Of a stretch of DNA of 64,000 nucleotides, positions 716-62,484 are shown in pieces. How positions within the stretch are numbered: position 1 is the first letter of the stretch; every line of letters starts with the position of its first letter. The position numbers and the translations under genes were made by a program. Source of the DNA: Candidatus Bathyarchaeota archaeon (GTDB lineage: Archaea > Thermoproteota > Bathyarchaeia > TCS64); contig CAVYVF010000002.1 of the NCBI GenBank assembly GCA_963771885.1, positions 160,001 to 224,000 on the forward strand, read 5' to 3'. Below the pieces are notes generated by a model. That model was not told the origin of the DNA, searched no databases, and saw nothing but the letters and a program-made list of their open reading frames with translations.

Positions 716-1009
716 GTGTACACGTTTCAATACAGCCCTAGCTGGTACCTACTCCTAGCCGCGTTCTTCATCGGCTGGCTCTCGGTGACCCTCTACAGGA
801 AGAAACTGTTCGATCGAATTGAGGCGAGGCAGCAGCTCCTCCTCGGAGCCCTCGGAATGGTAGCTCTGGCTAGCATGGAGTTCTTCGCCATATCTAATAA
901 CCTCTGGAACTACGTCCCCGCCAACTGGCCAGTGATACTCTGGCCCACTTACTTCATCGCCATTCTATTTGGTTACCAGCTACTCAGGTTCGTGGAGAAG
1001 ATAGTTTAA
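716..1009 (+). CDS. small membrane protein, hypothetical
   Basis: Three hydrophobic segments; likely GTG start at 716, after the upstream gene's stop. Confidence 0.55.
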   Translation: MYTFQYSPSWYLLLAAFFIGWLSVTLYRKKLFDRIEARQQLLLGALGMVALASMEFFAISNNLWNYVPANWPVILWPTYFIAILFGYQLLRFVEKIV

Positions 1010-1041
1010 CGCGCGCGCTCCGGTTACTAATAATTCTTCCT

Positions 1042-1566
1042 TTAACGTGCGTTGAGGGCCCGTTCGAGGGATACTAAATTAAACAATCCGTAATTGGCGT
1101 AAAAGACTCTCCCCTCTTCATCAATAAGGAATTGAGCGGGGCTCTGTGTTTCCTTTCCTTCATATAATCCATGTTCCTTGCCGAGGCTTCTAGCCCGTTT
1201 AGCTTTCTGGAATATCCCAATAAAGCTATTTACTCCTAAATTGCCGACTCCGTAAAGATCGTATAACTCGTATTTTCCATTGGTCTTTTGGGAGGTAATT
1301 ATTGGGAAATCAACGTTTTTTCCCTCGATGAACTTTTTAGCGGATTCTGGGAACGACTGGTTCACATAGATAACTTTCAAGTCACTGTGTTTCTTCATGA
1401 ACTCTCTGAGCTCATCGAACTCCAGCTGGCATACAGGGCAGCCAAAGTATCTGCTGAAGTTGAGTAATGTCTTGTTTCCCTTGAACTCGTTTAGGTTTAG
1501 TATCCCTTTATTGATTGATTCGGCGGCGAAATCTGGAGCTTTGTCACCTGGTTTAATGCGAGGCAT
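1042..1566 (-). CDS. AhpC/TSA (peroxiredoxin-like) redoxin
   Basis: GDKAPDF N-terminus, FSRYFGCPVC, PAQFLIDEEG. Confidence 0.8.
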   Translation of the reverse strand: MPRIKPGDKAPDFAAESINKGILNLNEFKGNKTLLNFSRYFGCPVCQLEFDELREFMKKHSDLKVIYVNQSFPESAKKFIEGKNVDFPIITSQKTNGKYELYDLYGVGNLGVNSFIGIFQKAKRARSLGKEHGLYEGKETQSPAQFLIDEEGRVFYANYGLFNLVSLERALNAR

Positions 1567-1718
1567 AATACGCGTATAGCTGCAGTGGGATAATTGGTTT
1601 ATGAGTAAATATTACTTAGTCATGACATTACAGTAAGCTGAGCGTGTGTGCGCGAGACTAAGCGTCCGCTGGGGGTGGCACACTCCAGCCCTTTATGTGC
1701 CGCCTGGTTCAAATCATA

Positions 1719-2015
1719 CTATTTTAGGGGGAATCTGGTAACAGCTTTCTGCATGGCTCCTCCCTGGCCATCTATGACCGCTTCAAGCCACCAGTCCTCC
1801 GTGGGCCACCAGAACGCGACTAGGTTCGCTAGTTGTTGCTCGTTGTCGGCCTCAATGAGCCTGAAACCCTTACCTCTGCCCGTGTATAGCGTATTTGTAA
1901 GCATCCTTGGGAATTGACTGGGGTCCTCCTGCAGCGCCTTGGCAAATTTGTCAGCGATTTCCTGTTCCCTATCAAAATTCTCCATGCTCCACTCCCAGTG
2001 CCAAACATACTTCAT
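1719..2015 (-). CDS. DUF3303-like small protein
   Basis: MKYVWHWEW...GKGFRLIEADNEQQLANL pattern. Confidence 0.5.
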   Translation of the reverse strand: MKYVWHWEWSMENFDREQEIADKFAKALQEDPSQFPRMLTNTLYTGRGKGFRLIEADNEQQLANLVAFWWPTEDWWLEAVIDGQGGAMQKAVTRFPLK

Positions 2016-2226
2016 TTTTTTTCACCTGTTTTACCCTGGACGGTACAACAAGAACGGTATGCTGTACCTGTTTGAATCTTGAAACCCTTGATATTTAGAA
2101 CTTTTCACATGGTAAATTTTCGCGTGCGCACGCGAGTAAGAGAGAGTGTAGGTAGGAGAGAGTAGTTGGGTTTGGGGCTAAAGTCTTTTCACTCATATCC
2201 TTTAGTTAGTGTACAGAGGACAAGCG

Positions 2227-4200
2227 ATGAACCATTTTCCCAGACTCTTCAGCACGATGAAGCTAGGACCTTACACGCTCAGGAACCGCATCGAGGCGGC
2301 GCCCATGGGGGCGCACGGCTCTCCGGATGGGTTCCTGACACCCGAGAACGCGGCTTACTACGAGCTACGCGCCAAGGGTGGACCCGCAATAGTCACCCTC
2401 GGGGAGAGCATGATCGACTCGAAGGGGACATCGCACGGGAGGGTAACGCCACTGGACGACCCGGGCATACTGCCCTCACTCATCAACACAACTGACGCCA
2501 TCAAGAGGCACGGCGCCCTCGCCTCAATCGAGCTGCTGCACGCGGGCATCAGGTCGGGTACTCCGCGGCCTGACGACCCCGTCTACGGCCCCAGCGCTGG
2601 GACATCATTCTACGGCAAGAAGATCATCGAGATGGGGGACGCTGAGATCGATAAGGTGGTGAACTCCTTCGGTGACGCTGCGGCGATGGCGAAGCTGGGT
2701 GGCGTCCAGATGTGCATGATCCACGGCGGCCACGGCTGGATGCTATCCCAGTGGTTCTCCACGCTCCACAACCATAGGACGGACATGTTCGGCGGGAGCA
2801 TCGAGAACAGGGCCCGAATCGCCCTTATGATAATCGACAACATGAGGAAGAAGTGTGGGCCGAACTTCCCCATAGAGATCCGGCTCAGCGGCGACGAGTT
2901 CACGCCCGGCGGTATGCCTCTCAGCGAGGTAGTAGAGCTCGCTAAAGTGTTGGACGGCAAGGTCGACATGATACATGTCTCCGCCACTACATTCAACGAC
3001 AGATCCGCAGGTCTCAGGATGTTCCCCAGCGTCTTCCTCCCCCACGGCGCCAACGTCTACCTCGCTGAGGCAGTCAAGAAGGCAGTGAAGACCCCCGTCG
3101 CCACAGTCGGCTCACTAGATGACCCTGCACAGATGGAGGAGATACTCGAGAGCGGTAAGGCTGACATGGTGACACTCGGCAGGGCGCTACTCGCCGACCC
3201 CTACCTGCCCGAGAAGGCTAGGAAGGGAAACGCGGACGACATCACGCCCTGCCTCCGATGCAACTACTGCATCAGCCAGAACTTCACTCCATACGTCAAG
3301 TACCCAAGAGGCATCGTGCAGTGCGTCGTTAACCCTATAATAGGCAGGGAGATGGAGGCTAAATTCGCCCCACCTTATAGCAGCCCGAAGAGGGTCATAG
3401 TAGCTGGCGGAGGACCCGCGGGGATGCAGGCAGCAATAACGGCGTCTGACCGTGGTCACGAGGTCGTCCTCTGCGAAAAGGGCAAGCGCCTCGGCGGCAC
3501 CCTACTCTACGCCGAACATGAGTACTTCAAAGAGGACATTAGGAAGCTAACCGAGGTCCTGATACGCCGCGTCAAGAAGAGGCCGATAACCGTGATGCTG
3601 AACACGGAGGTCACCCCCGAGTTCGTCGAGAAGATACACCCCGACGTCCTCATTGCCGCGGTTGGCGCCGAGCCCATAATTCCCAAGATACCCGGCGTGA
3701 ACGGCAAGAACGTCGTCGTCGCAGCGAGCATGTACGACGAGGCCACCATCGGCAAGAAGGTCGTCATAATAGGCGGAGGGCTCGTCGGCTGCGAGGAGGG
3801 GCTGCACCTCGCCCACGCGGGCAGGGACGTGACAATATTGGAGATGCTCGAGAAGGCGGCGCCTGAAGCGCCTTATCTTCACTGGCTCGCCGTTATGAAG
3901 GAGATCGAGAAGATCGGTGTCAGACTGCAGACACGCCACAAGGTTACCCGGGTGACCGAGGAGGGTGTCTACGCGGTGGACGAAAGCGGGAAAGAGAAGC
4001 TCTATGAGGCAGACACGGTGCTATTGGCCGTTGGGCTCAGGCCGAGGACCGACTTGGTTGAGTCGCTCCGCAACTCCGCGCCCGACTTCATGGTAATTGG
4101 AGACTGCCAGAAACCGGCGACCGTCATGGAGGCGATCCACGGGGGCTTCTTCTCTGCCCTCGGATATAATGGAATCTCGCGTGTGGGCGTAACGATATAG
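2227..4200 (+). CDS. NADH:flavin oxidoreductase (old yellow enzyme family with FAD/NAD domain)
   Basis: LRNRIEAAPM, HGGHGW, NHRTDMFGGS, CLRCNYC...C Fe-S motif, GGGPAG and GGGLVG Rossmann motifs. Confidence 0.9.
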   Translation: MNHFPRLFSTMKLGPYTLRNRIEAAPMGAHGSPDGFLTPENAAYYELRAKGGPAIVTLGESMIDSKGTSHGRVTPLDDPGILPSLINTTDAIKRHGALASIELLHAGIRSGTPRPDDPVYGPSAGTSFYGKKIIEMGDAEIDKVVNSFGDAAAMAKLGGVQMCMIHGGHGWMLSQWFSTLHNHRTDMFGGSIENRARIALMIIDNMRKKCGPNFPIEIRLSGDEFTPGGMPLSEVVELAKVLDGKVDMIHVSATTFNDRSAGLRMFPSVFLPHGANVYLAEAVKKAVKTPVATVGSLDDPAQMEEILESGKADMVTLGRALLADPYLPEKARKGNADDITPCLRCNYCISQNFTPYVKYPRGIVQCVVNPIIGREMEAKFAPPYSSPKRVIVAGGGPAGMQAAITASDRGHEVVLCEKGKRLGGTLLYAEHEYFKEDIRKLTEVLIRRVKKRPITVMLNTEVTPEFVEKIHPDVLIAAVGAEPIIPKIPGVNGKNVVVAASMYDEATIGKKVVIIGGGLVGCEEGLHLAHAGRDVTILEMLEKAAPEAPYLHWLAVMKEIEKIGVRLQTRHKVTRVTEEGVYAVDESGKEKLYEADTVLLAVGLRPRTDLVESLRNSAPDFMVIGDCQKPATVMEAIHGGFFSALGYNGISRVGVTI

Positions 4201-4226
4201 TCTTTGACTATCTGCGGACACATTGA

Positions 4227-8340: not shown

Positions 8341-8856
8341 TCAACCCCGAATACGTTGATTCTTAAGAGACTCTATGCTTGAAAAACACTCAGACTCACC
8401 CCACCCGCCATCATTCCGCCTCTTAACACACTCTGCGTACAATCTCTCAAGGAGTGTCTCTCTATCAACTCCTACCGTTCTCAAAGCCTCATCGAGGGCA
8501 TCCACTGCCCCGTCGTAATACAACTTCAGTGTCTTTTCGTAGTGGGGATCAAGGTTCTCACTCTCCCCCTTCCACTCGAAGCTAGTCTCATACTTGTATA
8601 CGGCTATGGCAGTTATGTAGACTCCCCATTTGGATGCGAGGCAGTCAACTTTCTCTTTCCCTTCGAGTAGTTCGCATGCCTGCGATAAACAGCGGGCTTC
8701 TTTAATGTAGGAACCTAGCTCATGGTGTGCCGCTGCGGCCTTTCTGAAGAGAGCTATTCTCTGTTGGTCGTCTATGGCTTGCGCCGCTTGATCCTCGTAG
8801 AGCCTAGCCAACTCGAAGCGGTTACCCGAAGTCTCCGTGGTGTCTGATTCTTCCAC
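8341..8856 (-). CDS. hypothetical helical protein
   Basis: 171-aa ORF, no recognised motif. Confidence 0.55.
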   Translation of the reverse strand: MEESDTTETSGNRFELARLYEDQAAQAIDDQQRIALFRKAAAAHHELGSYIKEARCLSQACELLEGKEKVDCLASKWGVYITAIAVYKYETSFEWKGESENLDPHYEKTLKLYYDGAVDALDEALRTVGVDRETLLERLYAECVKRRNDGGWGESECFSSIESLKNQRIRG

Positions 8857-9149
8857 AGTGTATTACTTATGCAACTCATCTAAATAACCAATTTCTATCA
8901 AGACGCTCCTTAAAAGTGGCGTAAAAACACCACGCGTGCGCAACTAGTTCAAGGGTCTAACAGACCGTGGAGGGTAATACTTCTTTGTCCCTCGAATCGT
9001 CTTCAACGCACCAAGAATTTGATCGTCCCGCTTTTCAGATTCTGTTAATGGTCTATACCCTTTCTTCGCATCTTTCATCTTCATCAATTAGTCAACTCCA
9101 TTAATCTTTTTTTGAGGGAAATTTAGAACCTCTACACGCACCCGCGCAT

Positions 9150-9470
9150 TTGGGGGGTGCCCAGGCGAGATTACCTCGCTGAACCCCGCTTTGGCGTTGT
9201 CAACTGGGGAGTGCAGAAATCTCAACCAGCCAAAGCCAGTCAAGCTCCTTTACAGTCCACTCCTCAAGGCTCCGCGGCTTTCAGGTCTTACACTGCTTCG
9301 ACCTTTCGTCCGCTCCCACCTGGACAAATGCAATCAATGCCGCCAGGATATAAGCGCATTCCATTGTTCTCAGCTATCAACTAATGATTTTTCAGCCTAT
9401 AATAATGCCCCTACATGCGCTGTATCAAGCAAATCTCAATCGAGGTCTAAATACGTCAAAATATTGTATC
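9150..9470 (-). ncRNA. candidate structured ncRNA, element A copy 1
   Basis: Aligns over ~320 nt to 12466-12785 with an indel that breaks reading frames; several self-complementary segments conserved in both copies. Confidence 0.55.
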
Positions 9471-9532
9471 CCTTAGCACGATATCTTATTGACGCGTTTA
9501 AGAATAATGAAATTCATAGAGCAGTAAAGACG

Positions 9533-9859
9533 TTAGTCCTTTGACTTCCTCTTAGCTTTCCCAATCTCTTCCTGAGCCTTCCCCTCGAGTTGCTCAATCT
9601 TACCCTTAAGCTGCTCAGTCTTATTATCAGTAATTTTCCCAATTTCCTCACGAATCTGGCCCTTGATCTTCTTTCCTCTACCCTCAAATTCAGCATCGCT
9701 CATATCGGTAACTTTACCCACATTCTCTTGAACAGTCCCCTCCGCCTGCTCAAGTTTGCCCTTGAGCTGCTCCGTCTTATTATCCGTGATTTTGCCTACT
9801 TCTTCACGGATCTGGCCCTTGAGTTTCTTCGCTCTACCTTCAACTTCGTCTTTGTTCAT
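9533..9859 (-). CDS. CsbD-family protein with two tandem CsbD repeats
   Basis: MNKDEVEGRAKKLKGQIREEVGKITDNKTEQLKGK unit occurs twice. Confidence 0.85.
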   Translation of the reverse strand: MNKDEVEGRAKKLKGQIREEVGKITDNKTEQLKGKLEQAEGTVQENVGKVTDMSDAEFEGRGKKIKGQIREEIGKITDNKTEQLKGKIEQLEGKAQEEIGKAKRKSKD

Positions 9860-9976
9860 GTTTGCAGGATAAGAAGCGCGGTTTATAAATGAAGGCAGAT
9901 AGAAGAGGACCCGCAATTTTGACTATGTTGAATTTTTTATATTTAATCACGCATAGATTTTTTTAATTATTTTGGG

Positions 9977-10074
9977 GTAAGGGTTTATCTTTATGATTTT
10001 CATAAAACTATGCTAAAGGAACGCCATACTCCCTTAGCCTCCGTAGTAGGGGCCGAAGAGGCCCCGAACCCTCA
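9977..10074. ncRNA. candidate small RNA, element B copy 1
   Basis: Core TATGCTAAAGGAACGCCATACTCCCTTAGCCTCCGTAGTAGGGGCCGAAGAGGCCC is identical at 14.7 and 54.0 kb; two hairpins; upstream GTAAGGGTTTATCT box. Confidence 0.55.
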
Positions 10075-10169
10075 ATATCGCTCACAAATCGAATGCGATT
10101 ATATAATTAATATTATCATTAGTAAAACGTGTATCTAGGTAAAGTAACTATTAAGCAGATAATAATGCT

Positions 10170-10355
10170 CTAATGTCCGATATCTGCCTCATCTTGCTTG
10201 GCTGTTTCTACATAGCAATCCATGCAAGCCTCCCCAAGTGTGGGGATATAGGCTATAAAAGTCGTCAATTTTTTATCACATTTGATGCATCTCCGCACCA
10301 AACTAGGGCTTGTAATATTTATCATCCAAAATTCCTCACTACTGCATCCACACAC
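10170..10355 (-). CDS. small Cys-rich (putative zinc-binding) protein, copy 1
   Basis: CGC, CxxC and CxxC; paralogue at 14889-15074 keeps the frame and all cysteines. Confidence 0.7.
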   Translation of the reverse strand: MCGCSSEEFWMINITSPSLVRRCIKCDKKLTTFIAYIPTLGEACMDCYVETAKQDEADIGH

Positions 10356-10373
10356 TATTCAGCCCGAAAGCAA

Positions 10374-10532
10374 TCATCCGGTAGCAATATTTCTACCCTG
10401 AATGAATCGGATGAGCACGACTATAACCGCGATGACCAGCAATGCATGGATCAAACTTCCGCCGATGTTACCAATCAGCCCAAGCACCCAGAGAACCACG
10501 AGGATCGCTACAATAGTCCATACAATATCCAT
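10374..10532 (-). CDS. lmo0937/DUF5670-family small membrane protein, copy 1
   Basis: Manual translation MDIVWTIVAILVVLWVLGLIGNIGGSLIHALLVIAVIVVLIRFIQGRNIATG (below the ORF-track cutoff). Confidence 0.85.
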   Translation of the reverse strand: MDIVWTIVAILVVLWVLGLIGNIGGSLIHALLVIAVIVVLIRFIQGRNIATG

Positions 10533-10537
10533 TCAAC

Positions 10538-10729
10538 TCAACTCCTGTGAGCGCGCTCGAGTTTATCCTTCTCCTTCTCGATACCTTTCTTAAGGTTATG
10601 AGCGCCCTTACCCAAGGCTTTTCCCACTTCCTCAGCCTTATCCTCGATGGCATCGCCTGCCTTTTTTGCGCCTTTAGCTAGGTCTTTTCCCGCTTTCTCT
10701 AACTTTTTCTCAATTGTTTTTGGTGACAA
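10538..10729 (-). CDS. small hydrophilic K/E/A/G-rich helical protein (LEA/hydrophilin-like), copy 1
   Basis: TTG start; SPKTIEKKLEKAGKDLAKGAKKAGDAIEDKAEEVGK; paralogue at 15257-15448. Confidence 0.7.
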   Translation of the reverse strand: MSPKTIEKKLEKAGKDLAKGAKKAGDAIEDKAEEVGKALGKGAHNLKKGIEKEKDKLERAHRS

Positions 10730-11143
10730 GTAACATCTAATTTGATAGGGGAAGCATTCAATATAAACCGGCGCGCGCGCTTCATCGCTCACGCACACAG
10801 TTACTCCGGCGAATAATCACGATGAGTTGCGCGGGTGGCTCGATCTGCATAATTATTCAGTAACCACATTTCTTCCCTGAATGAGCCTAATGCACGCGCG
10901 CTCTTCTGGTTGGCGCTTTGGGTGACGAGACTCTAACTGTCAAGATGCGCTTGTTCTGAGTTTAGGGCCAAGGCAGCGTGTGCGCGATTTATTCAAAAGC
11001 CTTATTGTTCCGTAGTTTAGCTATGAAGAAACCGCGTGCGCACTATACGCCTCTCCACGGAAAGGGGGAGGTAAGTAGATGAATCGCATGCAACGGTGTC
11101 AGTTTTAAATTTATATGTTGGAAATGAACTATTATAGGTTAAC

Positions 11144-12361
11144 TTGTACCTTGGATCGACTTCTTCAATCAAAGTTCTACTTGTCGACGACGAACCCGCC
11201 GTTATGGACATAACAAAACTGAATCTCGAAGCAGCCGACACATCGTTCAAGATAACCCTCGCCCCCACGCCAAAAGACGCACTCACCCTCCTCAAAGGAG
11301 AGTCCTTCGACTGCATAGTCTCCGACTACATCATGCCGGAGATGAATGGCATCGAACTCTGCACCGAGATTAAGAAGACCCGGAAAATCCCGTTCTTAAT
11401 ATACACCGCTAGGGGAAGCGAAGAAGTCGCCTCCGCCGCCTTCTCAGCGGGAGTCGACGACTATGTGAGGAAGGAACCGAATCTCGCCCATTTTGCCTTA
11501 CTTGCGCGAAGGATCAGACAGTCAGTAGAGAAGAATAAGGTTGAGGAGTTCAAAGCCGCGGCCAACAAGGAGCTAGCCGAAACAAATGTTGGACTGAAAG
11601 AATCCTACGCAGAACTAGCAAAGGCAAGAACGGCTGCCCAAGAACACGCGGACAAGCTTGAGGGGATAGTTGAGAATGGGAGAGCCAAGCTGCGGGTTAG
11701 TGAGGAGAGGCTGCGTAAGTTGCAGCAGATGGATACGATTAGCAGGATTGGGGCAGTCGTGGCGCATGATCTCCGTGGTCCGCTTGTGACTATTAGTCAG
11801 GCATCGGAGATGGCCCGGGTGAGGCAGGAGCTATCTGAGAAGATGCTTGAGTTGATCGCTGAGAACGCGAGGAGGTCCCTGGAGATGATTGAGGAGTTCA
11901 GGGAGGGCACAAGGGAGGTGAAGGCGGAGAAGAGAAGCGCGGATTTATCATCTCTAGTTAAGAAGACAGTGGAGGAGATGACTAGGCCGGGTAACGTCTC
12001 ACTCGACCTTAACCTGGGGGAGGGTTTGGATGCTGTTTCGCTTGACCCCGGGTTGATTCGTAGAGTGTTTGTGAATCTTGTCCAGAACGGTGTGGAGGCG
12101 ATGCCTGAGGGTGGAAGGCTTACCGTTTCGGCTAAGCGTAATGACGGCGATGCTGTGATTGAGGTCTGTGATACGGGTGTGGGCATCAAGGATGAGGATC
12201 AGAAGCACATCTTTGAGCCTTTATTCACTAGGAAGAAGGGTGGCTTGGGGCTCGGGCTGTACTTTGTTCAGATGGCTGTGTTTGCGCATGGTGGTGTTGT
12301 TAACTTTGAGTCAGGACCCGCTAAAGGGACAACTTTCAGGGTAGTATTGCCTATTGCCTAA
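11144..12361 (+). CDS. hybrid receiver / histidine kinase
   Basis: VLLVDDE...SDYIMP receiver; AHDLRGP H-box; NLVQNG, DTGVGI, FEPLF and GLGLGL HATPase boxes. Confidence 0.9.
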   Translation: MYLGSTSSIKVLLVDDEPAVMDITKLNLEAADTSFKITLAPTPKDALTLLKGESFDCIVSDYIMPEMNGIELCTEIKKTRKIPFLIYTARGSEEVASAAFSAGVDDYVRKEPNLAHFALLARRIRQSVEKNKVEEFKAAANKELAETNVGLKESYAELAKARTAAQEHADKLEGIVENGRAKLRVSEERLRKLQQMDTISRIGAVVAHDLRGPLVTISQASEMARVRQELSEKMLELIAENARRSLEMIEEFREGTREVKAEKRSADLSSLVKKTVEEMTRPGNVSLDLNLGEGLDAVSLDPGLIRRVFVNLVQNGVEAMPEGGRLTVSAKRNDGDAVIEVCDTGVGIKDEDQKHIFEPLFTRKKGGLGLGLYFVQMAVFAHGGVVNFESGPAKGTTFRVVLPIA

Positions 12362-12465
12362 ACAACTCCTAATAGATTAGTATCGGCTAGAAGTGAGAAT
12401 AAAAATAACCGGTGCGCACAGCTCCTATCCTATTGAAGAGAAGGAGAAACACTTCACGCTCGCTC

Positions 12466-12785
12466 TTGGGGGGTGCCCAGGGGAGATTACCGCGCTGACC
12501 CCGCTTTGGCGTGATCAGCTGGGGAATGTAGGTGTCTCAGCCAGCCAAAGCCAGCCAAGCTCCTTCGCAGCCCACTCCTCACGGCTCTGCGGCTTTCAGG
12601 TCTTCCACTACTTGGACCTTTCATCCGCTCCCACCTGGGCAAAAGCAACTACATCCGCCGGGGTATAAGCGCGTTCCATTGTACTCAGCTATCAATTAGT
12701 GGTTTCTCAGCCTCCAATAGCGCCCACATATGCGCTGAATCAGCTAAATCAATGTCGAGGCCTGAAAGGGCCGATATATTGTGTC
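12466..12785 (-). ncRNA. candidate structured ncRNA, element A copy 2
   Basis: Homologous to 9150-9470. Confidence 0.55.
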
Positions 12786-12844
12786 TTTTTGCGCGAACAC
12801 CTACTTGAAAACAGGATCGTCACGAAACCTGAATAGGTAATATT

Positions 12845-13057
12845 CTACTCCTCATCCTCTCCGCGTTCCTCCTCTTCTTTTTCCTCGGGATTCTCTACAG
12901 AATATTCCTCCTCCTTCTCCCACTCCTCCCGATCCTCTCTCTCATCCTCCTGACTTTCCTCCTCTTCTTTCTCTATTTCCTCTTCCTCGTGTTCTTTCTC
13001 GCGCTCCTCTTCATGTTCAGCCTCACGGGTCTCCCGCTCGCTTTCAGAGTAGTTCAT
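12845..13057 (-). CDS. Glu-rich low-complexity protein
   Basis: 70-aa ORF, more than half Glu; GGAG upstream of ATG. Confidence 0.5.
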   Translation of the reverse strand: MNYSESERETREAEHEEEREKEHEEEEIEKEEEESQEDEREDREEWEKEEEYSVENPEEKEEEERGEDEE

Positions 13058-13215
13058 CTACGTCTTCTCCTAAGACTGCCCTAAAGATCCCAGAATTTTA
13101 AATGATCCTTAATATTTCGTACACAATTTAACGGCGCGTGCGACTTTACCTGGCATTATCGGGGTATTTTGTTTATTGGAGATGCATTATCTAGTTTCGC
13201 GCCAATTACTGTGTC

Positions 13216-13575
13216 TTATACACCCCATACGCTTCGGAGGTAAACAGATATTTTACCCCCTTCTATCCTCAACTCGTACGTCTTCAGATCACTTGTAGTT
13301 CCCCTATGCATGAAGAGCTTCGGCCCCTGGATGTTCTTCCCGCTTGTTACATCGAATCGAGACCCGTGGACTGGGCAGGAGATTATGTTCCCTTCAATGA
13401 CACCGTTGGAGAAGTCTCCTAGCTTATGGGGACAATGATTGGCGATGGCATAGAATTTGTTGTCGACATTAATTATGAGGATCTCCTCCTCCTTGATCTT
13501 CACAACCTTCATCTTGCCTACGGGGATCTCGGCGGTCTCTGCGACATACGTGAATGATGACTCAGGGTTTGCCAT
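13216..13575 (-). CDS. Rieske 2Fe-2S ferredoxin
   Basis: CPH and CPVHGSRFD motifs. Confidence 0.9.
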   Translation of the reverse strand: MANPESSFTYVAETAEIPVGKMKVVKIKEEEILIINVDNKFYAIANHCPHKLGDFSNGVIEGNIISCPVHGSRFDVTSGKNIQGPKLFMHRGTTSDLKTYELRIEGGKISVYLRSVWGV

Positions 13576-13840
13576 AACAATCAATTAGGACTAAGGATTT
13601 GTATGTAATAAACAGTCCATAATCGCGTGCGTATGCGCGCGCATATCGATAATTTATCCAAAATTCTCCTGAACAGTTCTCTTCGCGCGCGAAATGTCAG
13701 AGTATAATAATCAAAATAATCTAACATATAAATTAAACCCATAATTAGCTAACCTTTTTTAAAATTTAGTTTCCAATGCATAAATTTAAACGAAAATGAA
13801 AGTCTTAATAACCTCAACCGAAGGTGCTAGTCGATAAGAT

Positions 13841-14140
13841 ATGACGATAACGGCACCAATCCAGAATGAAGTACTAAAGGTATTACTCCAAAGCAGAAGA
13901 CCCCTATCATTGAGACAACTAACTCATAGCTGCTCCCTCACATACCATCAGGTAGCAAGTTGCCTAGGAGCACTTCAGTCAAAAGGCTATGTGAGAAAAG
14001 TAAAAACTGGCATTTACGAGGTCACTGAAGACGCAAAACTTGTGGAGCTCTCTCCCGAGACCCAAATTAGGATACTTAAAGATAAGATTGGTGAACTCGA
14101 GAATATTATAAAATCCCTTATGATAAAAATTCATAAGTAA
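13841..14140 (+). CDS. helix-turn-helix protein with C-terminal coiled coil
   Basis: LSLRQL...QVASCLGALQSKGYVRKVKTGIYEV wHTH-like pattern. Confidence 0.65.
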   Translation: MTITAPIQNEVLKVLLQSRRPLSLRQLTHSCSLTYHQVASCLGALQSKGYVRKVKTGIYEVTEDAKLVELSPETQIRILKDKIGELENIIKSLMIKIHK

Positions 14141-14459
14141 ATAAATTAATTTGACCCTTAATCGTGCGCGTGTGAATTGCATCGTGGTTTAGCTCGCGCG
14201 CGGAAGATTTTCCAGTTTAAATTTCTAGCTTCTCTGAAAGCACTATATGCAATTTGGCCAAAAAAAGGTGAAAAAGTGGATGACGCTGGAAAAGACTTGG
14301 CACCGGGATTGGAGGAAGGCGCCGCTGAACTTTAGAAAGGAATCAAAGCCGATGAGAGATAAAATCGTGAAATTGTTAAGGAAATAATTAAATAAAATTG
14401 AATGCAATCAAACTGACTGATTTAAAAAACTTTCACATTCGCGTAACTAGGCCGATACT

Positions 14460-14630
14460 CTATTCTTTCGCCTTCCGCTTAATTTTCCCAACGGTCTCCT
14501 GGACATCGCCTTGGACCTGCTCGATCTTACCCTTGACCTGCTCAGTCTTATTATCCGTGATTTTGCCTACTTCTTCACGGATCTGACCCTTGAGTTTCTT
14601 CGCCTTACCTTCAACTTCGTCTTTGCTCAT
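14460..14630 (-). CDS. CsbD-family protein
   Basis: MSKDEVEGKAKKLKGQIREEVGKITDNKTEQVKGKIEQVQG. Confidence 0.85.
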   Translation of the reverse strand: MSKDEVEGKAKKLKGQIREEVGKITDNKTEQVKGKIEQVQGDVQETVGKIKRKAKE

Positions 14631-14698
14631 GTTTACCGGATGAGAAGCGCTGTTAATAAATGAGGACAGGATCGAAGGATGCACGTATTCGGCAATAG

Positions 14699-14799
14699 GT
14701 AAGGGTTTATCTATAGGGGTTTTTAATTTCCTTTTATGCTAAAGGAACGCCATACTCCCTTAGCCTCCGTAGTAGGGGCCGAAGAGGCCCGAACACTCA
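14699..14799. ncRNA. candidate small RNA, element B copy 2
   Basis: Same core as 9977-10074 with one C fewer in the second hairpin. Confidence 0.55.
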
Positions 14800-14888
14800 C
14801 AAGAGCTAAAAAATCGAATGTGATTATAAAATTTATGCTAATATTAATAAAACGTGGACCTGCGTGTGGTTACTGAGCAGATCATAAT

Positions 14889-15074
14889 TTAATGTCGAAT
14901 GTTTGCCTCATCTTGCCTGGCTGTTTCTACATAACAATCCATGCAGGCCTCCCCTAACGAGGGGATATAGGCTATAAAAGTGGTTAATTTTCTATCACAT
15001 TTTACGCATCTCGGCACCAAGCTCGGACTTGTTGTATTTATCATTCCAAATTCCCCTATATCGCATCCACACAC
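14889..15074 (-). CDS. small Cys-rich protein, copy 2
   Basis: Paralogue of 10170-10355. Confidence 0.7.
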   Translation of the reverse strand: MCGCDIGEFGMINTTSPSLVPRCVKCDRKLTTFIAYIPSLGEACMDCYVETARQDEANIRH

Positions 15075-15092
15075 TACTCAGCTTATTGTAAA

Positions 15093-15251
15093 CTATCCGG
15101 TGGTGATGTTTCTACCCTGAATTAATCGGATGAGTACGACGATAACCGCGATCACTAGCAATGCGTGGATCAAGCTTCCACCGATATTACCAAGCAGCCC
15201 AAGCACCCAGAGAACCACGAGGATCACTACAATAGTCCATATTATGTCCAT
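15093..15251 (-). CDS. lmo0937/DUF5670-family small membrane protein, copy 2
   Basis: MDIIWTIVVILVVLWVLGLLGNIGGSLIHALLVIAVIVVLIRLIQGR... Confidence 0.85.
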   Translation of the reverse strand: MDIIWTIVVILVVLWVLGLLGNIGGSLIHALLVIAVIVVLIRLIQGRNITTG

Positions 15252-15256
15252 TCAAC

Positions 15257-15448
15257 TCAACCCCTGTGAGCGCGTTCGAGTTTATCCTTCTCTTTCTCGA
15301 TACCCTTCTTGAGGTTATGAGCGCCTTTACTCACGGCTTTTCCTACTTCTTCAGCCTTATCCTCTATGGTGTCGCCTGCTTTTTTAGCGCCTTTAGCTAA
15401 GTCTTTTCCCGCCTTCTCTAACTTTTTCTCAATGGTTTTTGGTGACAA
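15257..15448 (-). CDS. LEA/hydrophilin-like small protein, copy 2
   Basis: Near-identical to 10538-10729. Confidence 0.7.
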   Translation of the reverse strand: MSPKTIEKKLEKAGKDLAKGAKKAGDTIEDKAEEVGKAVSKGAHNLKKGIEKEKDKLERAHRG

Positions 15449-15842
15449 GAAACATTCAATATGATCGAGGAAGCATTGAATATAAACTGGAATCTTTGCG
15501 TCTAGAAGCTTTATCGCGTCTCTCACAAAAAGATCAATTAGACGAGGTGGCCGCTTTAGGAAGGTCATCCTCACCCAGATTCAACTATAAGGATTTCAAT
15601 AAATTCGAACATGTGTTTTTTCACTCATCGTAATCATCATATGCCGTTGCTCTGAAGCTTGTGCATTGATGAGCGAGCGGCTTGGTCTGCATCATTATTC
15701 AGATACAATACTTATTCTCCGAATGAGCCTAATGCACGCGACTCATGGTTGATTGATAAATATCGCTGTTAACAAAGTAAAGAATGTAAGTACACCGTAG
15801 ATATCTAATAAATAGCAGGGTTCCTTACCTCCAACGAGTTAA

Positions 15843-21211: not shown

Positions 21212-21518
21212 TGTTTTCTCTAATAGGAATTGGGAGTTAATTGTTTTTCTCTTAGGTACGTATGGTCAACAAGAGGCGCGCGCGATGTCGAGAAGGCAGC
21301 ATATTTTCAACTCATTAGTAAAGGAATTCTAAATATTGAAAAAAAAACATCGATCCGAATAATTCCGCACAGAGTATATGTTGGCTAGCCTCGCGCCCGA
21401 TTTGAGTTATTATTGACATTTTAAATGCGCGTGTATTCTATTGTAATACGTAGACATGCGCGCATACGTCGGCTTGGAAGTGCCGCACTCTGTCTGCATA
21501 GTTATATGGTGAGAGGAT

Positions 21519-25585: not shown

Positions 25586-26410
25586 ATGGATAATGATTTA
25601 AGGAGAGAACTCATAGCAAAATCCCCAATAACCATAAATGGGCTAAGAAAACTCAACATCGGTGCCGGTATTCTTCATCTAGTTCAGGGAATAATAATGC
25701 TGGGTTTAGGATTATCAATAACCTGGAATAGAGAAATCTACACATTCTACATTAAATTTAAGATATTATCATTAAACCCACCAAATTTCCAGGTGTTGCC
25801 CGACCCGAAAGTAGCCTTGAATCTAGAATATCTAGGAGTTATCCTATCCTCCTTTCTACTAATATCTGCTGCAGCTCACTTCATAATAGCCTTCCTCAGA
25901 ATTAAAAATTATGAGGAGAATTTAAAGAAGGGAATGAATCCATACAGATGGTATGAATATGCAATATCTAGTTCCATTATGCTGACGTTCCTCTCTACAT
26001 TCGTAGGCGTCTGGGATTTATGGTCTCTAGTGATGATTTTTGTCTTAAACACTATGATGATAATGTTTGGTTATCTTATGGAGAAGATCAATCAGTATAC
26101 TAAGAAGACGGATTGGTCTCCCTATCTACTTGGTTGCATCTCAGGGTTCACGCCTTGGCTAGTCACCGCTGCTTACTTTATTGCTGCACTAGGTTCAACT
26201 GATACTCGACCACCTACTTTCGTCTACCTAACACTGGTAATTTACTTCATAATGTTCAATACTTTCTCAATAAATATGATTCTTCAATACAAGGGAATTA
26301 GTAGATGGAAGGATTACTTATTTGGCGAAAGAGTATACATCATACTCAGCCTTGTTGCAAAGACAATACTTGCATGGCTGGTTTTCATAGGCATTTATGC
26401 GCCATTCTAA
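25586..26410 (+). CDS. heliorhodopsin
   Basis: ILHLVQG, SAAAHF, NPYRWYEYAISSS, GERVYIILSLVAK (Schiff-base Lys in the SLxAK motif). Confidence 0.92.
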   Translation: MDNDLRRELIAKSPITINGLRKLNIGAGILHLVQGIIMLGLGLSITWNREIYTFYIKFKILSLNPPNFQVLPDPKVALNLEYLGVILSSFLLISAAAHFIIAFLRIKNYEENLKKGMNPYRWYEYAISSSIMLTFLSTFVGVWDLWSLVMIFVLNTMMIMFGYLMEKINQYTKKTDWSPYLLGCISGFTPWLVTAAYFIAALGSTDTRPPTFVYLTLVIYFIMFNTFSINMILQYKGISRWKDYLFGERVYIILSLVAKTILAWLVFIGIYAPF

Positions 26411-30831: not shown

Positions 30832-30901
30832 GCTAACAATTAGCGCGCGCGACGCAGCAATCAATTCGTAAAAACTAAATTGCCTGAGAAAGGCTGACCT
30901 A

Positions 30902-33561: not shown

Positions 33562-34235
33562 GTGCTTGAGAGTCTCAGTGTTGTAAGCGCGAGAATATAG
33601 CCGAAAACACACATGCGTAGTGCTCCCTCATCTGTTTAGCTGAAAGTGTGGCTAATCTGAGTGTGTTGCCTTTTGTAGTGTTTATGGGGCTTCATCAGCC
33701 CCGTCGCCATCGCCCCAAGGGGGCGGTGTAGGACTCGCGGCCTTGTGGTCAGAACCTAGCCGCAAGGCTATCGATGGCATGTGAGTTTTTAAGATTCATG
33801 GATTCCAGATACTAATATTATGCTCACGCAACTCATTCACAGATCCCACACCCTTCGTAATTATGCATAAATCTTATCAATCCAAGATTGCACCTGCAAC
33901 TCTACCTTAACCGCTTCATCCCACAAGTTCCATGAAGGTTCTATGCCTAGGTATTGAGGAGATTGAGACTCCTACATTGAGGTCGCGCGCGCCACGAAGG
34001 CTAACCTCACTGAGGCCCTTGACCGAAATGAGGCGGCACTTGGAAGGCTAGACGTCTAAATCCGTAGACATTTGCGTTGACTATCTCCGCGCGCGTGTGT
34101 GCGATAATCGCATTAGCTCGGTAGTTGATATGGTTGATATTTCCTATTCGCATGCGCGCGCGCCCACTTTTCGAAAATATTCATAGAGTAAGCTAAATTC
34201 GAGAACATTCACAATTTAGGCTGTGTGAGTGAATT

Positions 34236-36528: not shown

Positions 36529-36862
36529 GTAACAGATTTGGGAACAGAAGATAAAAAAAGATCTGCGACAGAAGGGCAATCATCCATGCGTGAATGGTTT
36601 TTGATTCATTTTTGCGCGTGCAGCGCGCGTGCTCATTATTCAGAAAAGTAAGCCCCGGAAACGCTTGCCCTACCCCAGTCTTACCTCAAACTCATCCAGC
36701 CAAGACCTCACTATGACGTAGAAACGCTAGTGGAGATCGAGTTACCTATAACTGCGTCTATTTCAAGTAGTCACGCGCGCAAATGATATATACTCAGTTG
36801 ACAATCACCCATATAAGGTTCATCAATCACTAACTGATGAACCTTGAAAAATTGGGAAACTG

Positions 36863-40057: not shown

Positions 40058-40189
40058 AAAGTACCGGAGTCATTGAGAGTTGAAGATAGTAATAATGCTT
40101 ATTGGAGTTTAAGGAGTTAGCGCGCGTGGCTGGAAACAGGTTTCGATGGAACGCACACGGCCGCGCGTGCGTGGGATGAGTTCGTTAAA

Positions 40190-47453: not shown

Positions 47454-47504
47454 TAATTGAGCTTAGGCGTGTGCACCATAGAAATAGCTACCGAATGCGA
47501 GTGG

Positions 47505-51095: not shown

Positions 51096-51431
51096 CTTTT
51101 CAATCTTCTCCGTTTCTCTTTCTTGCCTGAACTTCACTGGATTTACCCGGTCCTTTTAGAGGTTTAAGCAGTTGTCATGTGGTAAATGTTACACACATGT
51201 ATCAGGGACACAGATTCTTACCATGATGGCTCAGATACTGATGTAATATTAGCGCATCGTTAATTTTCAGCGCATTTTCCTTAGAAAATATATCGAAAAT
51301 CATTTTTTTATTTGTATGATGTAGCGCACACAATCTGTCCTCCTAAACGTCCTAGTTTTCGCATTTTTCGTTTCTCCTGACCTTGGTAAATATTGATCAT
51401 ATAGATTTAAAATATAGAATAGAGATACATA

Positions 51432-52819: not shown

Positions 52820-53117
52820 CTGTATCCCGGTTTAGGATAATACAGATTATAAAAGGCGCTTGTGGAGGTATAATCTAGATTCACACTCCATAAATTATGG
52901 CATACTTTAACGTTCATTTTGGTGAGGCGGGCACTATTTGGGATGCCCTGGGTCACTTAGGGATAGTTTGAGGAATTATTGGTACGTTGTAGCGTGTTTC
53001 GCGCGCGCATGCGCTTTAATCGTCTGAATTTTTAGGCTCACATCGAGTATAATAAAGGGCATGTGCTAAAACACACTGAAGTGGATAAAACCCACTTTAT
53101 CACTGGAGTGAAGAGAC

Positions 53118-53894: not shown

Positions 53895-53961
53895 GATTTT
53901 TCTTAGGGAAGCGTGTTATAAGAACTCCTTTCTTTTGCGCACAATTTTTGAAATTATTAAA

Positions 53962-54060
53962 GTAAGGGTTTATCTTTATGGATTTTCATAAAACTATGCT
54001 AAAGGAACGCCATACTCCCTTAGCCTCCGTAGTAGGGGCCGAAGAGGCCCCGAATACTCA
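53962..54060. ncRNA. candidate small RNA, element B copy 3
   Basis: Near-identical to 9977-10074 but outside the duplicated cassette. Confidence 0.55.
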
Positions 54061-54276
54061 CGCCAACTATCACGAAACTGCAAGTAAATTGTTTAAAATC
54101 GGTTAGTTTGCCTTATGCGCGCGCATGGCATACATTTAAAATTATTTTTTTAGGGTGGGCACTATTTTGGGGTGTTTTGGCGGGCGCAAATGATTAATCT
54201 CTTGAGAAATGGCTGACGTTGTGCGCACACACAAGGATCTGGGGAAGTTGAAATATTGATATTATTATGATTCATC

Positions 54277-57663: not shown

Positions 57664-57718
57664 CAAAATTTGGACTGAACTAAACAGACTGAGTGGACTC
57701 CGACTCTTCACAGATGAA

Positions 57719-58702: not shown

Positions 58703-58780
58703 TGAGTGCGCACATAAGGCCTATTTATATGCACATTTTTATCTCAGATTTCCGCGGAAATGAGGAGTCTTAAAAAGATT

Positions 58781-59431: not shown

Positions 59432-59554
59432 AGAGAATCAATTGTTTGTTTGTAAGCTTAGTTAATAGAGGTTCTTTCCTTCTAGCGCATAAAGTAATTG
59501 CAGCCTCTGTATGGTGATAAAGCGCGCCTCCCGGTACTCGGTGGACACGCGCAT

Positions 59555-59699
59555 TATTTTGGGGGCCAGGGTCTGGATCAGGTCTAGGGCTTGGCATTGG
59601 ATCCGGGGTTGGATTGGGGTTAGGATCTGGGGTCGGGTTGGGCGTGGGGTCGGGTGTATTCGGATTAGGGTTAGGATTTGGTTTCAGATCTGGACACAT
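59555..59699 (-). other. Pro-rich low-complexity micro-ORF (PN/PD/PT repeats)
   Basis: MCPDLKPNPNPNPNTPDPTPNPTPDPNPNPTPDPMPSPRPDPDPGP; true stop uncertain. Confidence 0.45.
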
Positions 59700-59748
59700 A
59701 TCTTATCCTTCCCTATACTAACTTGTTCAAAAACATGGGTGCGCGTGC

Positions 59749-59806
59749 GGAGTATGGCGTTCCATTAGCAATAATTTATGAAAACCCATGAAGGCAAACC
59801 CTTACC
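59749..59806. repeat. truncated, inverted copy of element B
   Basis: GGAGTATGGCGTTCCATTAGC...AAACCCTTACC resembles the reverse complement of 53962-54020. Confidence 0.8.
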
Positions 59807-59927
59807 ATCGCGAGCGAATGAAGTGGAAAAACGGCTCGCGTCGTTTCTCATGAAAGCGCCCCTAGCTTTCGATTGAATGAGTGACCAGCTCTGTGCATAT
59901 CCTTTAGGGATGCTGAGATGCGCGCGC

Positions 59928-60047
59928 GGTCTCGGACCAGGACTTTATTATTGTCGAATGGCTCTGGAGGCGCATGGAGGGCGAATAGATTTTACTTCCA
60001 AGCTTGGGCAGGGAACAACCTTCATAATAATAATACCCATTGAATAA
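59928..60047 (+). pseudogene. C-terminal fragment of a histidine kinase HATPase domain
   Basis: GLGPGLYYCRMALEAHGGRIDFTSKLGQGTTFIIIIPIE*, similar to the C-terminus of 11144-12361. Confidence 0.8.
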
Positions 60048-60113
60048 ATCGCCCTGTGCACAAGTAACACTAGTTTATATCGTTTCATTCCAATAGATCA
60101 TATAGCGGATTAA

Positions 60114-61034
60114 ATGTATCAAAATAGTATGATTTCTGTCGTTGTACCCGCTTATAATGAAGAGTTACTCATAGAGCAAACTTTAGAATCGATACCAGAT
60201 TACATCGATAAAATATATGCAGTTGACGATGGATCATATGATGACACCTATAATATAATTAAAAAAACATCGATTAAAGATAATAGAATAATTCCATTAA
60301 AACATGAGATAAATAAAGGGGTTGGTGCAGCGATTATTACCGGGTATAAAAAAAGTGTAGATGATAACGTTGACGTAGCTGTAGTCATGGCGGGAGATTA
60401 TCAGATGGATCAAACTCAAATACCCAAATTAATCGAACCAATTATAGAAGGAAATGCGGATTATACCAAGGGAAATAGATTAACGAATAATACCGATATG
60501 AAAGGTATGAGTATATTTAGACGGTTTGGAAACGAGTTATTATCTATACTCACAAAAATCTCGTCAGGTTATTATGATATTATGGATCCTCAAAACGGCT
60601 ATGCGGCGATTTCTAGACAGGCACTTACTACCATCGAGTTAGATGAGATCTATCCAAAATATGGATACTGTAACGATATTTTAGTAAAGTTAAACGTATT
60701 TGATCTTAGGGTGAAGGATGTCCCTATACCGGCTCGATACGGTTCAGAAAAATCAAAGATAAAATATGGGAGATATATAATGAATGTCTCCTGGTTGCTT
60801 TTCGGAAATTTTTTGTACAGACTAAAGATGAAGTACATCTATCAGGATCTAAGTCTGATTCCTTTTCTTTTTATATTTGGTGCTTTATTAATGCCTCTTG
60901 GAATGTTCTCTATGTTTTATAATAACTTCACATTGTTTTCAAATGCGTTTTCTTTACCTATTATTATCCTAAGTATACTATTTGTTTTAATTGCATTAAT
61001 GCTTGATATTAAAAATAGCAGAAATATTCACTAG
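60114..61034 (+). CDS. GT2 glycosyltransferase (DPM-synthase-like)
   Basis: VVVPAYNEE, VDDGSYD, MAGDYQMD, DPQNGY. Confidence 0.9.
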   Translation: MYQNSMISVVVPAYNEELLIEQTLESIPDYIDKIYAVDDGSYDDTYNIIKKTSIKDNRIIPLKHEINKGVGAAIITGYKKSVDDNVDVAVVMAGDYQMDQTQIPKLIEPIIEGNADYTKGNRLTNNTDMKGMSIFRRFGNELLSILTKISSGYYDIMDPQNGYAAISRQALTTIELDEIYPKYGYCNDILVKLNVFDLRVKDVPIPARYGSEKSKIKYGRYIMNVSWLLFGNFLYRLKMKYIYQDLSLIPFLFIFGALLMPLGMFSMFYNNFTLFSNAFSLPIIILSILFVLIALMLDIKNSRNIH

Positions 61035-61061
61035 CACATGCAAATCGCCTCGTGTGAAATT

Positions 61062-61583
61062 TTATATCGGTACCTCACTTACAGTAAAGACCAATTCAGC
61101 GAGTTTGGCAGCCTCTCTGGTGAAGTCCTCCTCACCCAGATCGATCCAATTTGGACCGGTAATTACTCCCCTTAGATAAATGGTCGTGACAAACCTAGAC
61201 CCCCTCTCCACAACCTTACTCCGCAGCTTATCAACGGCTTTGGGGTTTGTTTCGTCGGCACCAACTAATCCCAAGATAACTCGTTTTCCGCGGAGATCGA
61301 TCTGTTCAAGGAATTCAATCATGGATGACGGAGGTTTCCCCTTCGATACGGCTGTTAGTAATATTATAGGGTCAAATTCAACAATAGCCGCGTTGGCTTT
61401 TGTTAGTTCTTCTTCTGCATGCGAATAGCGTCTGATCCTTAGCTTGTCTCTCCAGTCTCCGGGCTCAACTATTTTTCTGCTTTCGGCTTTGATTGTTGGT
61501 AGAACGATCTCCGCTATCTTGGCTGTTCTGCCTGTTTTGCTATAATAGAAGATGAGGGGCTGTAGAATTATGGTGCTCGACAA
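61062..61583 (-). CDS. flavodoxin-like protein
   Basis: YYSKTGRTAKIAE. Confidence 0.6.
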   Translation of the reverse strand: MSSTIILQPLIFYYSKTGRTAKIAEIVLPTIKAESRKIVEPGDWRDKLRIRRYSHAEEELTKANAAIVEFDPIILLTAVSKGKPPSSMIEFLEQIDLRGKRVILGLVGADETNPKAVDKLRSKVVERGSRFVTTIYLRGVITGPNWIDLGEEDFTREAAKLAELVFTVSEVPI

Positions 61584-61730
61584 AGTTTAATCCCATAAAT
61601 TATCTTTGAACCTTTTTTAATAAATGTTAACCCATTTTACGCGGGAATTTTTTCGTATTTTCACATAAATTCCTGTGTGCGATTAGCCAGCTCAATTTCC
61701 TTCATTTATTAGCAGCGGTATTTCGCGCGC

Positions 61731-61883
61731 GACGAAGTAGAGGGAAGAGGAAAGAAAATCAAGGGACAGATCCGTGAAGAGATAGGTAAGATTTCGGATA
61801 ATAAAACGGAACCTCAAAGGAAAGATCGAGCAAGTCGAGGGAAAAGTGCAAGTCGAGAAAATCAAGAGAAGGGTCAAAGAATA
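61731..61883 (+). pseudogene. degenerate csbD copy
   Basis: DEVEGRGKKIKGQIREEIGKISDNKTE with frameshift; start codon missing. Confidence 0.8.
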
Positions 61884-61990
61884 GAACCCTTCAATCGCCA
61901 TTCCGCTCGATTAGCATGCGCGCGCGCTCACAAATAGATAAAGGTAAAACAGAGGAGAACGAGATCATGCGCCTAAATGAGATATGGGTG

Positions 61991-62356
61991 CTAGAAGCTT
62001 ATTACGGCGTCAGCCTCTAGGAGAAGATCATTGAGTGTTGCCGCACCTACGATACCAGCGTCGCTCACAAAGCTACCCCTAGGAAGATTAAACAGCATAC
62101 AGCTCTGCTCACAAACCATAAGCTTCACACCGGCTTTAACCGCTTGATCCATGACCTCCTTCAGGCTCGGAAATCCCCCGATCTTTATCTTCTCGGCCTC
62201 ACCGGTTTTTACCACTGTAATTCCCTTTATTATGAAGTAGATTGTGGCTTCTATGCTCATGGCCGCGGCTGTTGAACCGAGGATGAAAGGTGCGTAAAGT
62301 CTCTCGGGTGTGTCTATTCCGCTTGTTTGGACGTAGAGTATCTTCTTCTTTACCAT
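61991..62356 (-). CDS. DsrE/DsrF-family protein
   Basis: PERLYAPF, AGVKLMVCEQS, VGAA. Confidence 0.85.
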   Translation of the reverse strand: MVKKKILYVQTSGIDTPERLYAPFILGSTAAAMSIEATIYFIIKGITVVKTGEAEKIKIGGFPSLKEVMDQAVKAGVKLMVCEQSCMLFNLPRGSFVSDAGIVGAATLNDLLLEADAVISF

Positions 62357-62484
62357 GTTTATCGTTTAGGAATACGAGGTTATATTGATATACCGAGATT
62401 CTTGGGTGAATGCTTTTTTAATGGTTGAATTCTACGCGCGAGCGAATAAAAACAGTATTTATACTGTTGAATGCGGTCAGAAGT

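Follow-up and report, generated by a model that had tools for sequence, protein, structure and literature searches.

Short alternating CG runs as probable end-joining filler at deletion and duplication junctions in a Bathyarchaeota genome

Template-free repair of double-strand breaks is an open question in most archaea (PMC12019639). The closest described process is the archaeal, Ku-independent, error-prone joining by the primase PriSL of Saccharolobus islandicus, a microhomology-mediated end joining by a primase-polymerase (pp-MMEJ, PMC12019639; polymerisation across discontinuous templates or PADT, PMC3333859). It anneals ends via as few as two G:C pairs, has terminal transfer activity and favours C insertions beside CG or GG (PMC12019639, PMC3333859). 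Its insertions are mostly 1-2 nt (PMC12019639), whereas those described here are (CG)n of 5-11 nt, for whose writer there are candidate enzymes. They came to light in the spacers of a 64,000-nt stretch of a Candidatus Bathyarchaeota genome (the window, G000:C2:160001-224000; G000 is a 2.46-Mb assembly of 23 contigs). A sequence-only reading of the window had taken its GC-rich tracts of alternating purines and pyrimidines for scars or substrates of an undescribed process that shuffles gene cassettes.

Bacteria and Methanocella paludicola have Ku/LigD non-homologous end joining, in which the additions made by LigD are short and not stereotyped. Our host likewise has Ku, a LigD polymerase and a ligase-phosphoesterase, and its junctions combine a deletion with added bases, but over the 61 genomes compared their presence does not follow that of the trait. 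Eukaryotic junction filler consists of N-nucleotides (TdT, Pol mu) and templated insertions by Pol theta, random or copied from nearby flanks. There too the junction bases are new and in neither parent; here, in contrast, they are nearly always the same alternating dinucleotide, at any locus. DNA polymerases can also lengthen short self-complementary repeats through slippage, an untemplated ('ab initio') synthesis known in vitro (PMC13061963), while here the repeat appears fixed in chromosomes at what seem to be repair junctions. Z-DNA-forming CG and purine-pyrimidine (RY) tracts are of the same sequence class, and a survey found such tracts generally suppressed in prokaryotes (PMC4060949). 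Here they are instead enriched in spacers and appear to arise at the break, not before it. A literature search, mainly of open-access main texts, found no description of CG-repeat filler in archaea. The tracts behave like end-joining junction filler, and their fixed alternating sequence sets them apart from all the systems compared.

CG runs at indel junctions

We compared G000 with a close relative, G003, over 1.10 Mb of the latter (120 contigs out of about 170, with the long ones taken up to 20 kb, and six loci). The two align over 998 kb at 95.3% identity, with 114 length-changing gaps. After removal of duplicates and one gap longer than 12 kb, 111 gaps were left, which divide into 22 small (<8 nt), 35 complex and 54 clean. 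At 14 of the 54 clean indels the junction of the shorter allele carries a pure CG run of at least 8 nt, where 0.19 would be expected in spacers and 0.06 genome-wide. Two tandem duplications and an insertion of 2.27 kb behind a tRNA add three clean indels whose run lies at an edge of the longer allele, which brings the count over both alleles to 17 of 54.

No such run is present in the intact allele. Throughout the 14 shorter-allele events, CG runs at the two breakpoints of the longer allele never exceed 4 nt. Filler alleles are found in G000 and in G003, and the deletions span 17-835 nt. Examples of replacement by CG are 109 nt by 11 nt, 38 by 9, 81 by 8, 629 by 6 and 42 by 8; 835 nt were replaced by CGCGCGTG. 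Fillers also lie between the copies of the two tandem duplications, and the copies of a 6-nt duplication, for example, are separated by 9 nt of CG. Fresh fillers are 70-100% C/G.

The filler allele is the derived one in all seven events of the 17 that could be polarised; the two tandem duplications polarise themselves. The other 10 are unpolarised, and an outgroup search with one G003 contig polarised no further events. Fillers interrupt Pfam domains in four proteins (an MFS transporter, an ATC-hydrolase-like protein, an HhH-GPD glycosylase, a TetR protein), and a flavin reductase has lost its start codon to another; the other genome has each of these intact. The idea of scars from an undescribed repair process is thus supported, since the run is new sequence that the intact allele does not have and is derived wherever this can be judged. 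Fill-in at breaks, one of the candidates first put forward, fits.

Once made, tracts are inherited. G000 spacer tracts in regions covered by G003 number 85, of which 38 are identical, 34 have substitutions, 11 are at an alignment edge and 2 differ more, so that 72 of the 85 are common to both genomes. They then decay neutrally by transitions, which number 32 among 546 G/C sites where spacers as a whole show about 4.4%, a comparison in which the tract definition favours transitions. CpG-specific hypermutation has little effect (4.8% transitions at CpG, 4.3% elsewhere). Sharing with substitutions at or above the background rate indicates that the tracts are inherited and free of constraint. The CA/TG steps seen in older tracts stem, at least in part, from the decay of pure CG.

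Junction position, absence from the intact allele, derived state and inheritance together point to scars mainly of end joining, rather than Z-DNA targets, regulator sites, cassette sites or assembly errors. We are highly confident that the tracts are junction filler. That they are short (CG)n filler left at deletion and duplication junctions by error-prone end joining, possibly by PriSL, we consider nearly as probable.

Tracts in the window, in the genome and at paralogue ends

For the census a tract was a maximal purine-pyrimidine alternating run of at least 8 nt and at least 70% G+C, and the null was dinucleotide shuffles. Gene and spacer limits are those of our own gene caller, with no curated annotation behind them. 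The 63 window spacers hold 41 tracts, against 4.4 +/- 2.0 in shuffles; at 10 nt or more the figures are 20 and 1.2, and at 12 nt or more 10 and 0.14. Spacers genome-wide hold 439 against 165 (convergent 105 vs 28.6, divergent 111 vs 40.3, tandem 223 vs 96.0), so the tracts are far above chance on both scales, while coding DNA is depleted (991 vs 1622). Tract density peaks in short convergent spacers, at about 3 per kb. Most tracts are 8-12 nt long, and GCGCGC is the top hexamer of the genome under a maximal-order Markov model. Tracts had been ascribed to most spacers of the accessory regions; the proportion is about half (28 of 63 in the window, 17 of 35 between 7.5 and 44 kb).

Accessory-like spacers, where both flanking genes are below 52% G+C, are enriched 5.2-fold (11-fold at 10 nt or more), mixed spacers 3.1-fold, and core-like spacers, between high-GC genes, only 1.4-fold. 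Genome-wide this agrees with the impression that tracts are sparser in housekeeping DNA; the window's own housekeeping block is too short to say (2 tracts in 1,183 nt). We found no flanking consensus around tracts and no fixed distance to genes, the spacing to promoters included. Tracts are scarce within 40 nt upstream of starts; after stops their spread is flat, and they are dense within 60 nt of them. Scarcity before starts without fixed spacing fits selection clearing promoters, not a binding site. The order of T and A along the strand inside tracts gave no signal of two one-sided tails, which it would reveal (34 vs 31).

The window tracts are given below, none with an assigned strand, followed by the basis of each entry. 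Every sequence that had been listed is in place; 36613..36632 proved to be two abutting tracts rather than one, and the weak case reported near 51264 has no 8-nt tract.

10771..10780: CG run where the 14480-15490 paralogue ceases to be homologous (independent contig compared)
10890..10901: left-end tract of a 134-bp piece that recurs at C23:458700-458567; the first 8 nt of the tract also occur in the paralogue at 15733 (C23 copy without tract)
10901..11033: the 134-bp piece, 88% like C23, with a tract at either end (paralogue comparison)
11033..11043: right-end tract of the same 134-bp piece (missing in the C23 copy and in a loose end of run X3)
15732..15740: tract at the end of a duplicated block (paralogue comparison)
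53000..53014: tract near the left edge of a 9.07-kb block absent from G003 (G003 comparison)
59739..59749: tract truncating an inverted copy of a ~100-nt repeated element (element copies)
59918..59928: tract before a histidine-kinase C-terminal fragment, the left end of a 1.7-kb block (C11 paralogue)
61724..61731: CG run substituted for the start of a csbD remnant (paralogues are CsbD)
61914..61927: tract near the right edge of the 9.07-kb block (one CG run at the G003 junction)
13684..13691: CG run where the run X1 contig rejoins after a 507-nt skip (X1 contig)
1009..1018: intergenic tract, no event attached (sequence)
2121..2134: intergenic tract, perfect palindrome, no event attached (sequence)
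8931..8942: intergenic tract; 8891-8941 is skipped by one contig of run X2 (sequence and X2 contig)
13624..13646: longest window tract, 65% G+C, no event attached (sequence)
21276..21284: intergenic CG run, no event attached (sequence)
30843..30851: intergenic CG run, no event attached (sequence)
34088..34103: intergenic tract, no event attached (sequence)
34149..34163: intergenic tract, no event attached (sequence)
36613..36632: two abutting 10-nt tracts, no event attached (sequence)
40162..40173: intergenic tract, no event attached (sequence)
47467..47476: old tract in the housekeeping block, common to G003 with one change (G003 comparison)
54114..54127: intergenic tract, 64% G+C, no event attached (sequence)

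The breakpoints named at 10771, 10891/15733, 59749, 59927 and 61731 all hold on paralogue comparison. The kinase fragment begins at 59927, and the C11 copy runs on upstream without a tract. The 1.7-kb block from 59927 is 94% like C11:5423-3712; the window has a tract at its left end and C11 one at its right end, the latter absent from the window. Paralogue ends genome-wide were found by self-BLAST, leaving out a homopolymer run in C1 and the self-inverted contig C18. A tract of at least 8 nt lies at 12 of 123 sharp ends, against 4.3 in shifted controls, and always in one copy only. The generalisation that a tract sits on every breakpoint revealed by a paralogue is overstated.

Two loci may show older scars in use. 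The 9,075 nt at about 52.9-62.0 kb correspond in G003 to 74 nt with one CG run, and window tracts lie near either edge of this block (53000..53014, 61914..61927). At C22:196605 a tract common to G000 and G003 stands where a 194-nt difference ends. Both fit deletion or insertion at older scars as a possibility, short of proof. Of the microhomology joining at tracts that was first suggested, what stands is possible re-use of old tracts, in only two or three cases.

Contigs from public runs of other studies were compared over window positions 8800-15800, and four joints were listed with their letters. Of these four, one in run X1 begins GCGCGCAC and skips 507 nt, and one in run X2 begins CGCGC and skips 1,313 nt. 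The X1 contig has AATTTA inserted at the position of the 10771 tract, as does the paralogue, so the window allele there looks derived. The tracts are known from these contigs and from two metagenome assemblies (G000, G003), not from reads of the source sample.

Low-GC accessory DNA makes up most of the window. Its genes include TFB, an archaeal CCA-adding enzyme and an archaeal prepilin peptidase, with a heliorhodopsin gene (25586-26410) in an accessory region. Proteins in the same 90% cluster as the TFB carry the label Candidatus Bathyarchaeota in their sources. Among 62 open reading frames scanned there was no recombinase, transposase or polymerase, and an Rfam search of the whole window gave two tRNAs and nothing else. 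A non-coding element of ~340 nt occurs in two copies, 80% alike (9139-9481 and 12455-12796), and recurs in G002, G009, G013 and G017 (78-89%). It matches no Rfam family at gathering score and is possibly an unlisted structured RNA. The ~100-nt non-coding element has four copies (9957-10074, 14699-14800, 53944-54060 and, inverted and truncated, 59749-59805), a GC-rich hairpin-like stretch at its end and no Rfam match; G009 has it too.

Outside the window, C1:86304-86813 reads 446 T then directly 64 A between two genes. It is the sole long homopolymer run of G000 and probably an assembly error. The small contigs C17 and C18, the latter a self-inverted duplicate, carry extra, broken copies of the polymerase gene PolX nearest in sequence to that of G007, and may come from another strain (the contamination figure is 6.7%).

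Distribution of the motif and candidate enzymes

Genomes were screened with a motif, WWNNGCGCGCGCNNWW and its reversed form (two counts), against a non-alternating control (four counts summed). Outside G000 and G003, genomes without Ku, LigD or PolX included, the figures are motif counts, not junctions. The motif is rich in most of the window's genus (up to 98 vs 6; G012 98, G011 97, G016 80, G014 73) and in genera g12, g13 and g19. It is absent from G001, G010, G018, G036, G038, G043, G047, G048 and all six genomes of family f4. G001 and G010 are low-GC at the single locus measured, and a substitute (AT)n filler had 0 matches in G001, G010, G018, G047 and G012. Rich outsiders among 300 genomes of the phylum are G266 (42 vs 3), G188 (14 vs 3), G065 (75 vs 8), G093 (51 vs 7) and G322 (21 vs 13). 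As a separate observation, GCGCGCGC is much commoner than CGCGCGCG in the motif-rich G065, G093 and G124 (family f26), G266, G254, G188 and G300, which lie outside the window's family and in some cases outside its class.

The sequence-only reading had suggested looking for end-joining, primase-polymerase and recombinase genes. The first two kinds are in G000 (Ku/LigD, PriS); a tyrosine recombinase had no match in G000, G033 or G018. A ligase-phosphoesterase, Ku and a stand-alone LigD polymerase lie side by side outside the window (C23:379234-382788), a set reported in few archaea (PMC12019639). The LigD primase-polymerase could add the CG filler and the LigD ligase seal it. Of the 17 other genomes of the genus, to which the motif-richest belong, 14 have Ku and 14 the LigD polymerase. 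Both genes are also present in G001, G010 and G018, which have 0 motif matches, whereas six motif-rich family members (G033, G034, G040, G041, G044 and G045, one a single-contig genome) have neither, and four motif-rich genomes of other families (G266, G188, G065, G093) have no LigD polymerase. On motif counts, dependence of the signature on Ku/LigD fails co-occurrence, and we regard this route as unlikely.

PolX, a relative of terminal transferase, or PolB2 by slippage synthesis could also write the scars, and we rate this pair no higher than Ku/LigD. The G000 PolX (C2:283939-285657) has its catalytic aspartates and a PHP domain, the PolB2-like gene has intact motifs, and prokaryotic PolX genes are often found beside end-joining genes (PMC9226535). 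PolX is canonical and near-universal in the order, and 32 of 36 family members have it. It is in 15 motif-free genomes as well, with no residue that separates the groups beyond kinship in a quick tree, and it was not found in G051 or in the motif-rich G266, G188, G065 and G093. PolB2-like matches occur in the motif-free G001, G010 and G018, and PolB paralogues as a class do not track the motif. Family f1 has its own family B complement: most of its genomes, G000 included, are without the ~790-aa polymerase that is present throughout the remainder of the class but retain those of ~860 and ~700 aa.

Other enzymes were tried and rejected. PolY exceeds the cut-off in 5 of 61 genomes, G000 not among them, and a reverse transcriptase was found in 0 of 5 genomes, again not in G000. 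PriS, the primase subunit searched, is encoded at C23:649149-650402 of G000 and found in 57 of 61 genomes; the presence of PriS and of other archaeo-eukaryotic primases does not track the motif.

Since there are motif-rich genomes without Ku/LigD or PolX, elimination favours a widely shared enzyme. Sulfolobus-group PriSL has terminal transfer and polymerises across discontinuous templates, and that of S. solfataricus anneals strands via two G:C pairs where more A:T pairs are needed (PMC3333859). S. islandicus PriSL repairs breaks in vivo, favouring C insertions beside CG or GG (PMC12019639). We thus name PriSL as the leading candidate for the writer, though with less than even confidence; LigD polymerase, PolX or PolB2, and some other enzyme follow as three comparably unlikely choices.

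The junction anatomy suggests a double-strand break as the origin of the filler. The break would be trimmed, and a primase-polymerase would hold the two 3' ends together via one or two G:C pairs. Each end would copy the tip of the other, slip back and copy again. Only a self-complementary dinucleotide could grow in this way, and G:C would anneal with fewer bases than A:T, which would yield (CG)n of 5-11 nt before the ends are sealed. CG alternation continues into the flank at 19 of 28 junction ends (41-48% expected, P 0.003-0.03), in agreement with mutual copying, though flank matches of at least 2 nt fall short of significance. Transitions keep the RY alternation while turning pure CG into mixes of CG, CA and TG. 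Scars would pile up where selection tolerates them, in spacers, pseudogenes and accessory regions and away from core promoters, and so would seem to punctuate gene cassettes. Old scars may serve again as microhomology.

Weight of the evidence and biological meaning

Several results count against end-joining filler written by PriSL. No CG run of at least 8 nt is present at 37 of the 54 clean junctions, and 35 further events between G003 and G000 are too complex to read. Flank matches of at least 2 nt occur at 7 of 28 ends, which is not significant (P 0.08-0.30). The majority of window tracts have no attachable event, and the share of paralogue ends with a tract is low (12 of 123, 4.3 in controls). 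PriS is near-universal where the motif is patchy, so PriSL alone does not explain the distribution and a lineage-specific variant or partner must be assumed. Sulfolobus-group PriSL insertions are mostly 1-2 nt and not (CG)n (PMC12019639). The phase bias differs in G065 (55:20) and G093 (38:13), where the motif may therefore be something else.

Z-DNA-prone or self-pairing tracts might instead be pre-existing fragile sites that draw breakpoints, with nothing synthesised. The shared tract at C22:196605, the tracts near both edges of the 9.07-kb block with another in its G003 junction, and the tract common to 10891/15733 at the end of homology would fit this. As a primary cause it is largely refuted by the longer allele, whose CG runs at the two breakpoints stay within 4 nt in each of the 14 events; several breakpoints also fall inside intact genes, and tracts are mostly 8-12 nt. 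We therefore think such sites, among them the Z-DNA-prone substrate of the first reading, improbable, surviving as secondary re-use only.

A binding site for a regulator or chromatin protein, or a terminator element, is more doubtful still. The density peak in short convergent spacers and within 60 nt of stop codons would suit it. Tracts nevertheless keep no fixed distance, are depleted within 40 nt upstream of starts, have no flanking consensus, diverge at or above the neutral rate, are weak in core spacers and appear de novo in broken genes.

Chimeric joins padded with CG during assembly or library preparation could be imagined for two metagenome assemblies, of which G000 has the 510-nt T/A run and a self-inverted contig, but 72 of 85 tracts are common to these independently assembled genomes with point substitutions, similar joints occur in other studies' contigs and the motif follows lineage, which makes an artefact very improbable. 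Integron-like, site-specific cassette recombination, equally improbable, would suit tracts that lie between single accessory genes and bound a moved 134-bp piece, but there are no conserved arms or flanks, no tyrosine recombinase in G000, G033 or G018, and junctions lie inside genes, in tandem duplications and at deletions of 17-42 nt; the cassette shuffling first envisaged is, as a dedicated system, not supported.

A stereotyped filler leaves a signature in the genome itself, open to counting in whatever assembly is at hand; between the two strains compared, roughly one in three readable indel junctions bears it. Four candidate polymerases, all purifiable, can be put to a sharp biochemical test with it. 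The filler would also account for accessory DNA that is mosaic and rich in fragments in an abundant lineage of sediments, and for the build-up there of Z-DNA-type repeats that most prokaryotes suppress (PMC4060949).

More tentatively, several archaeal lineages may repair breaks by synthesising a (CG)n linker that is self-complementary, with both ends tailed alike by an enzyme of the primase type. If so, any end could join any other, foreign DNA included, with the linker as a universal adaptor. Such a linker would drive gene gain, loss and reshuffling without recombinases, and would leave a readable record of past breaks in uncultured genomes.

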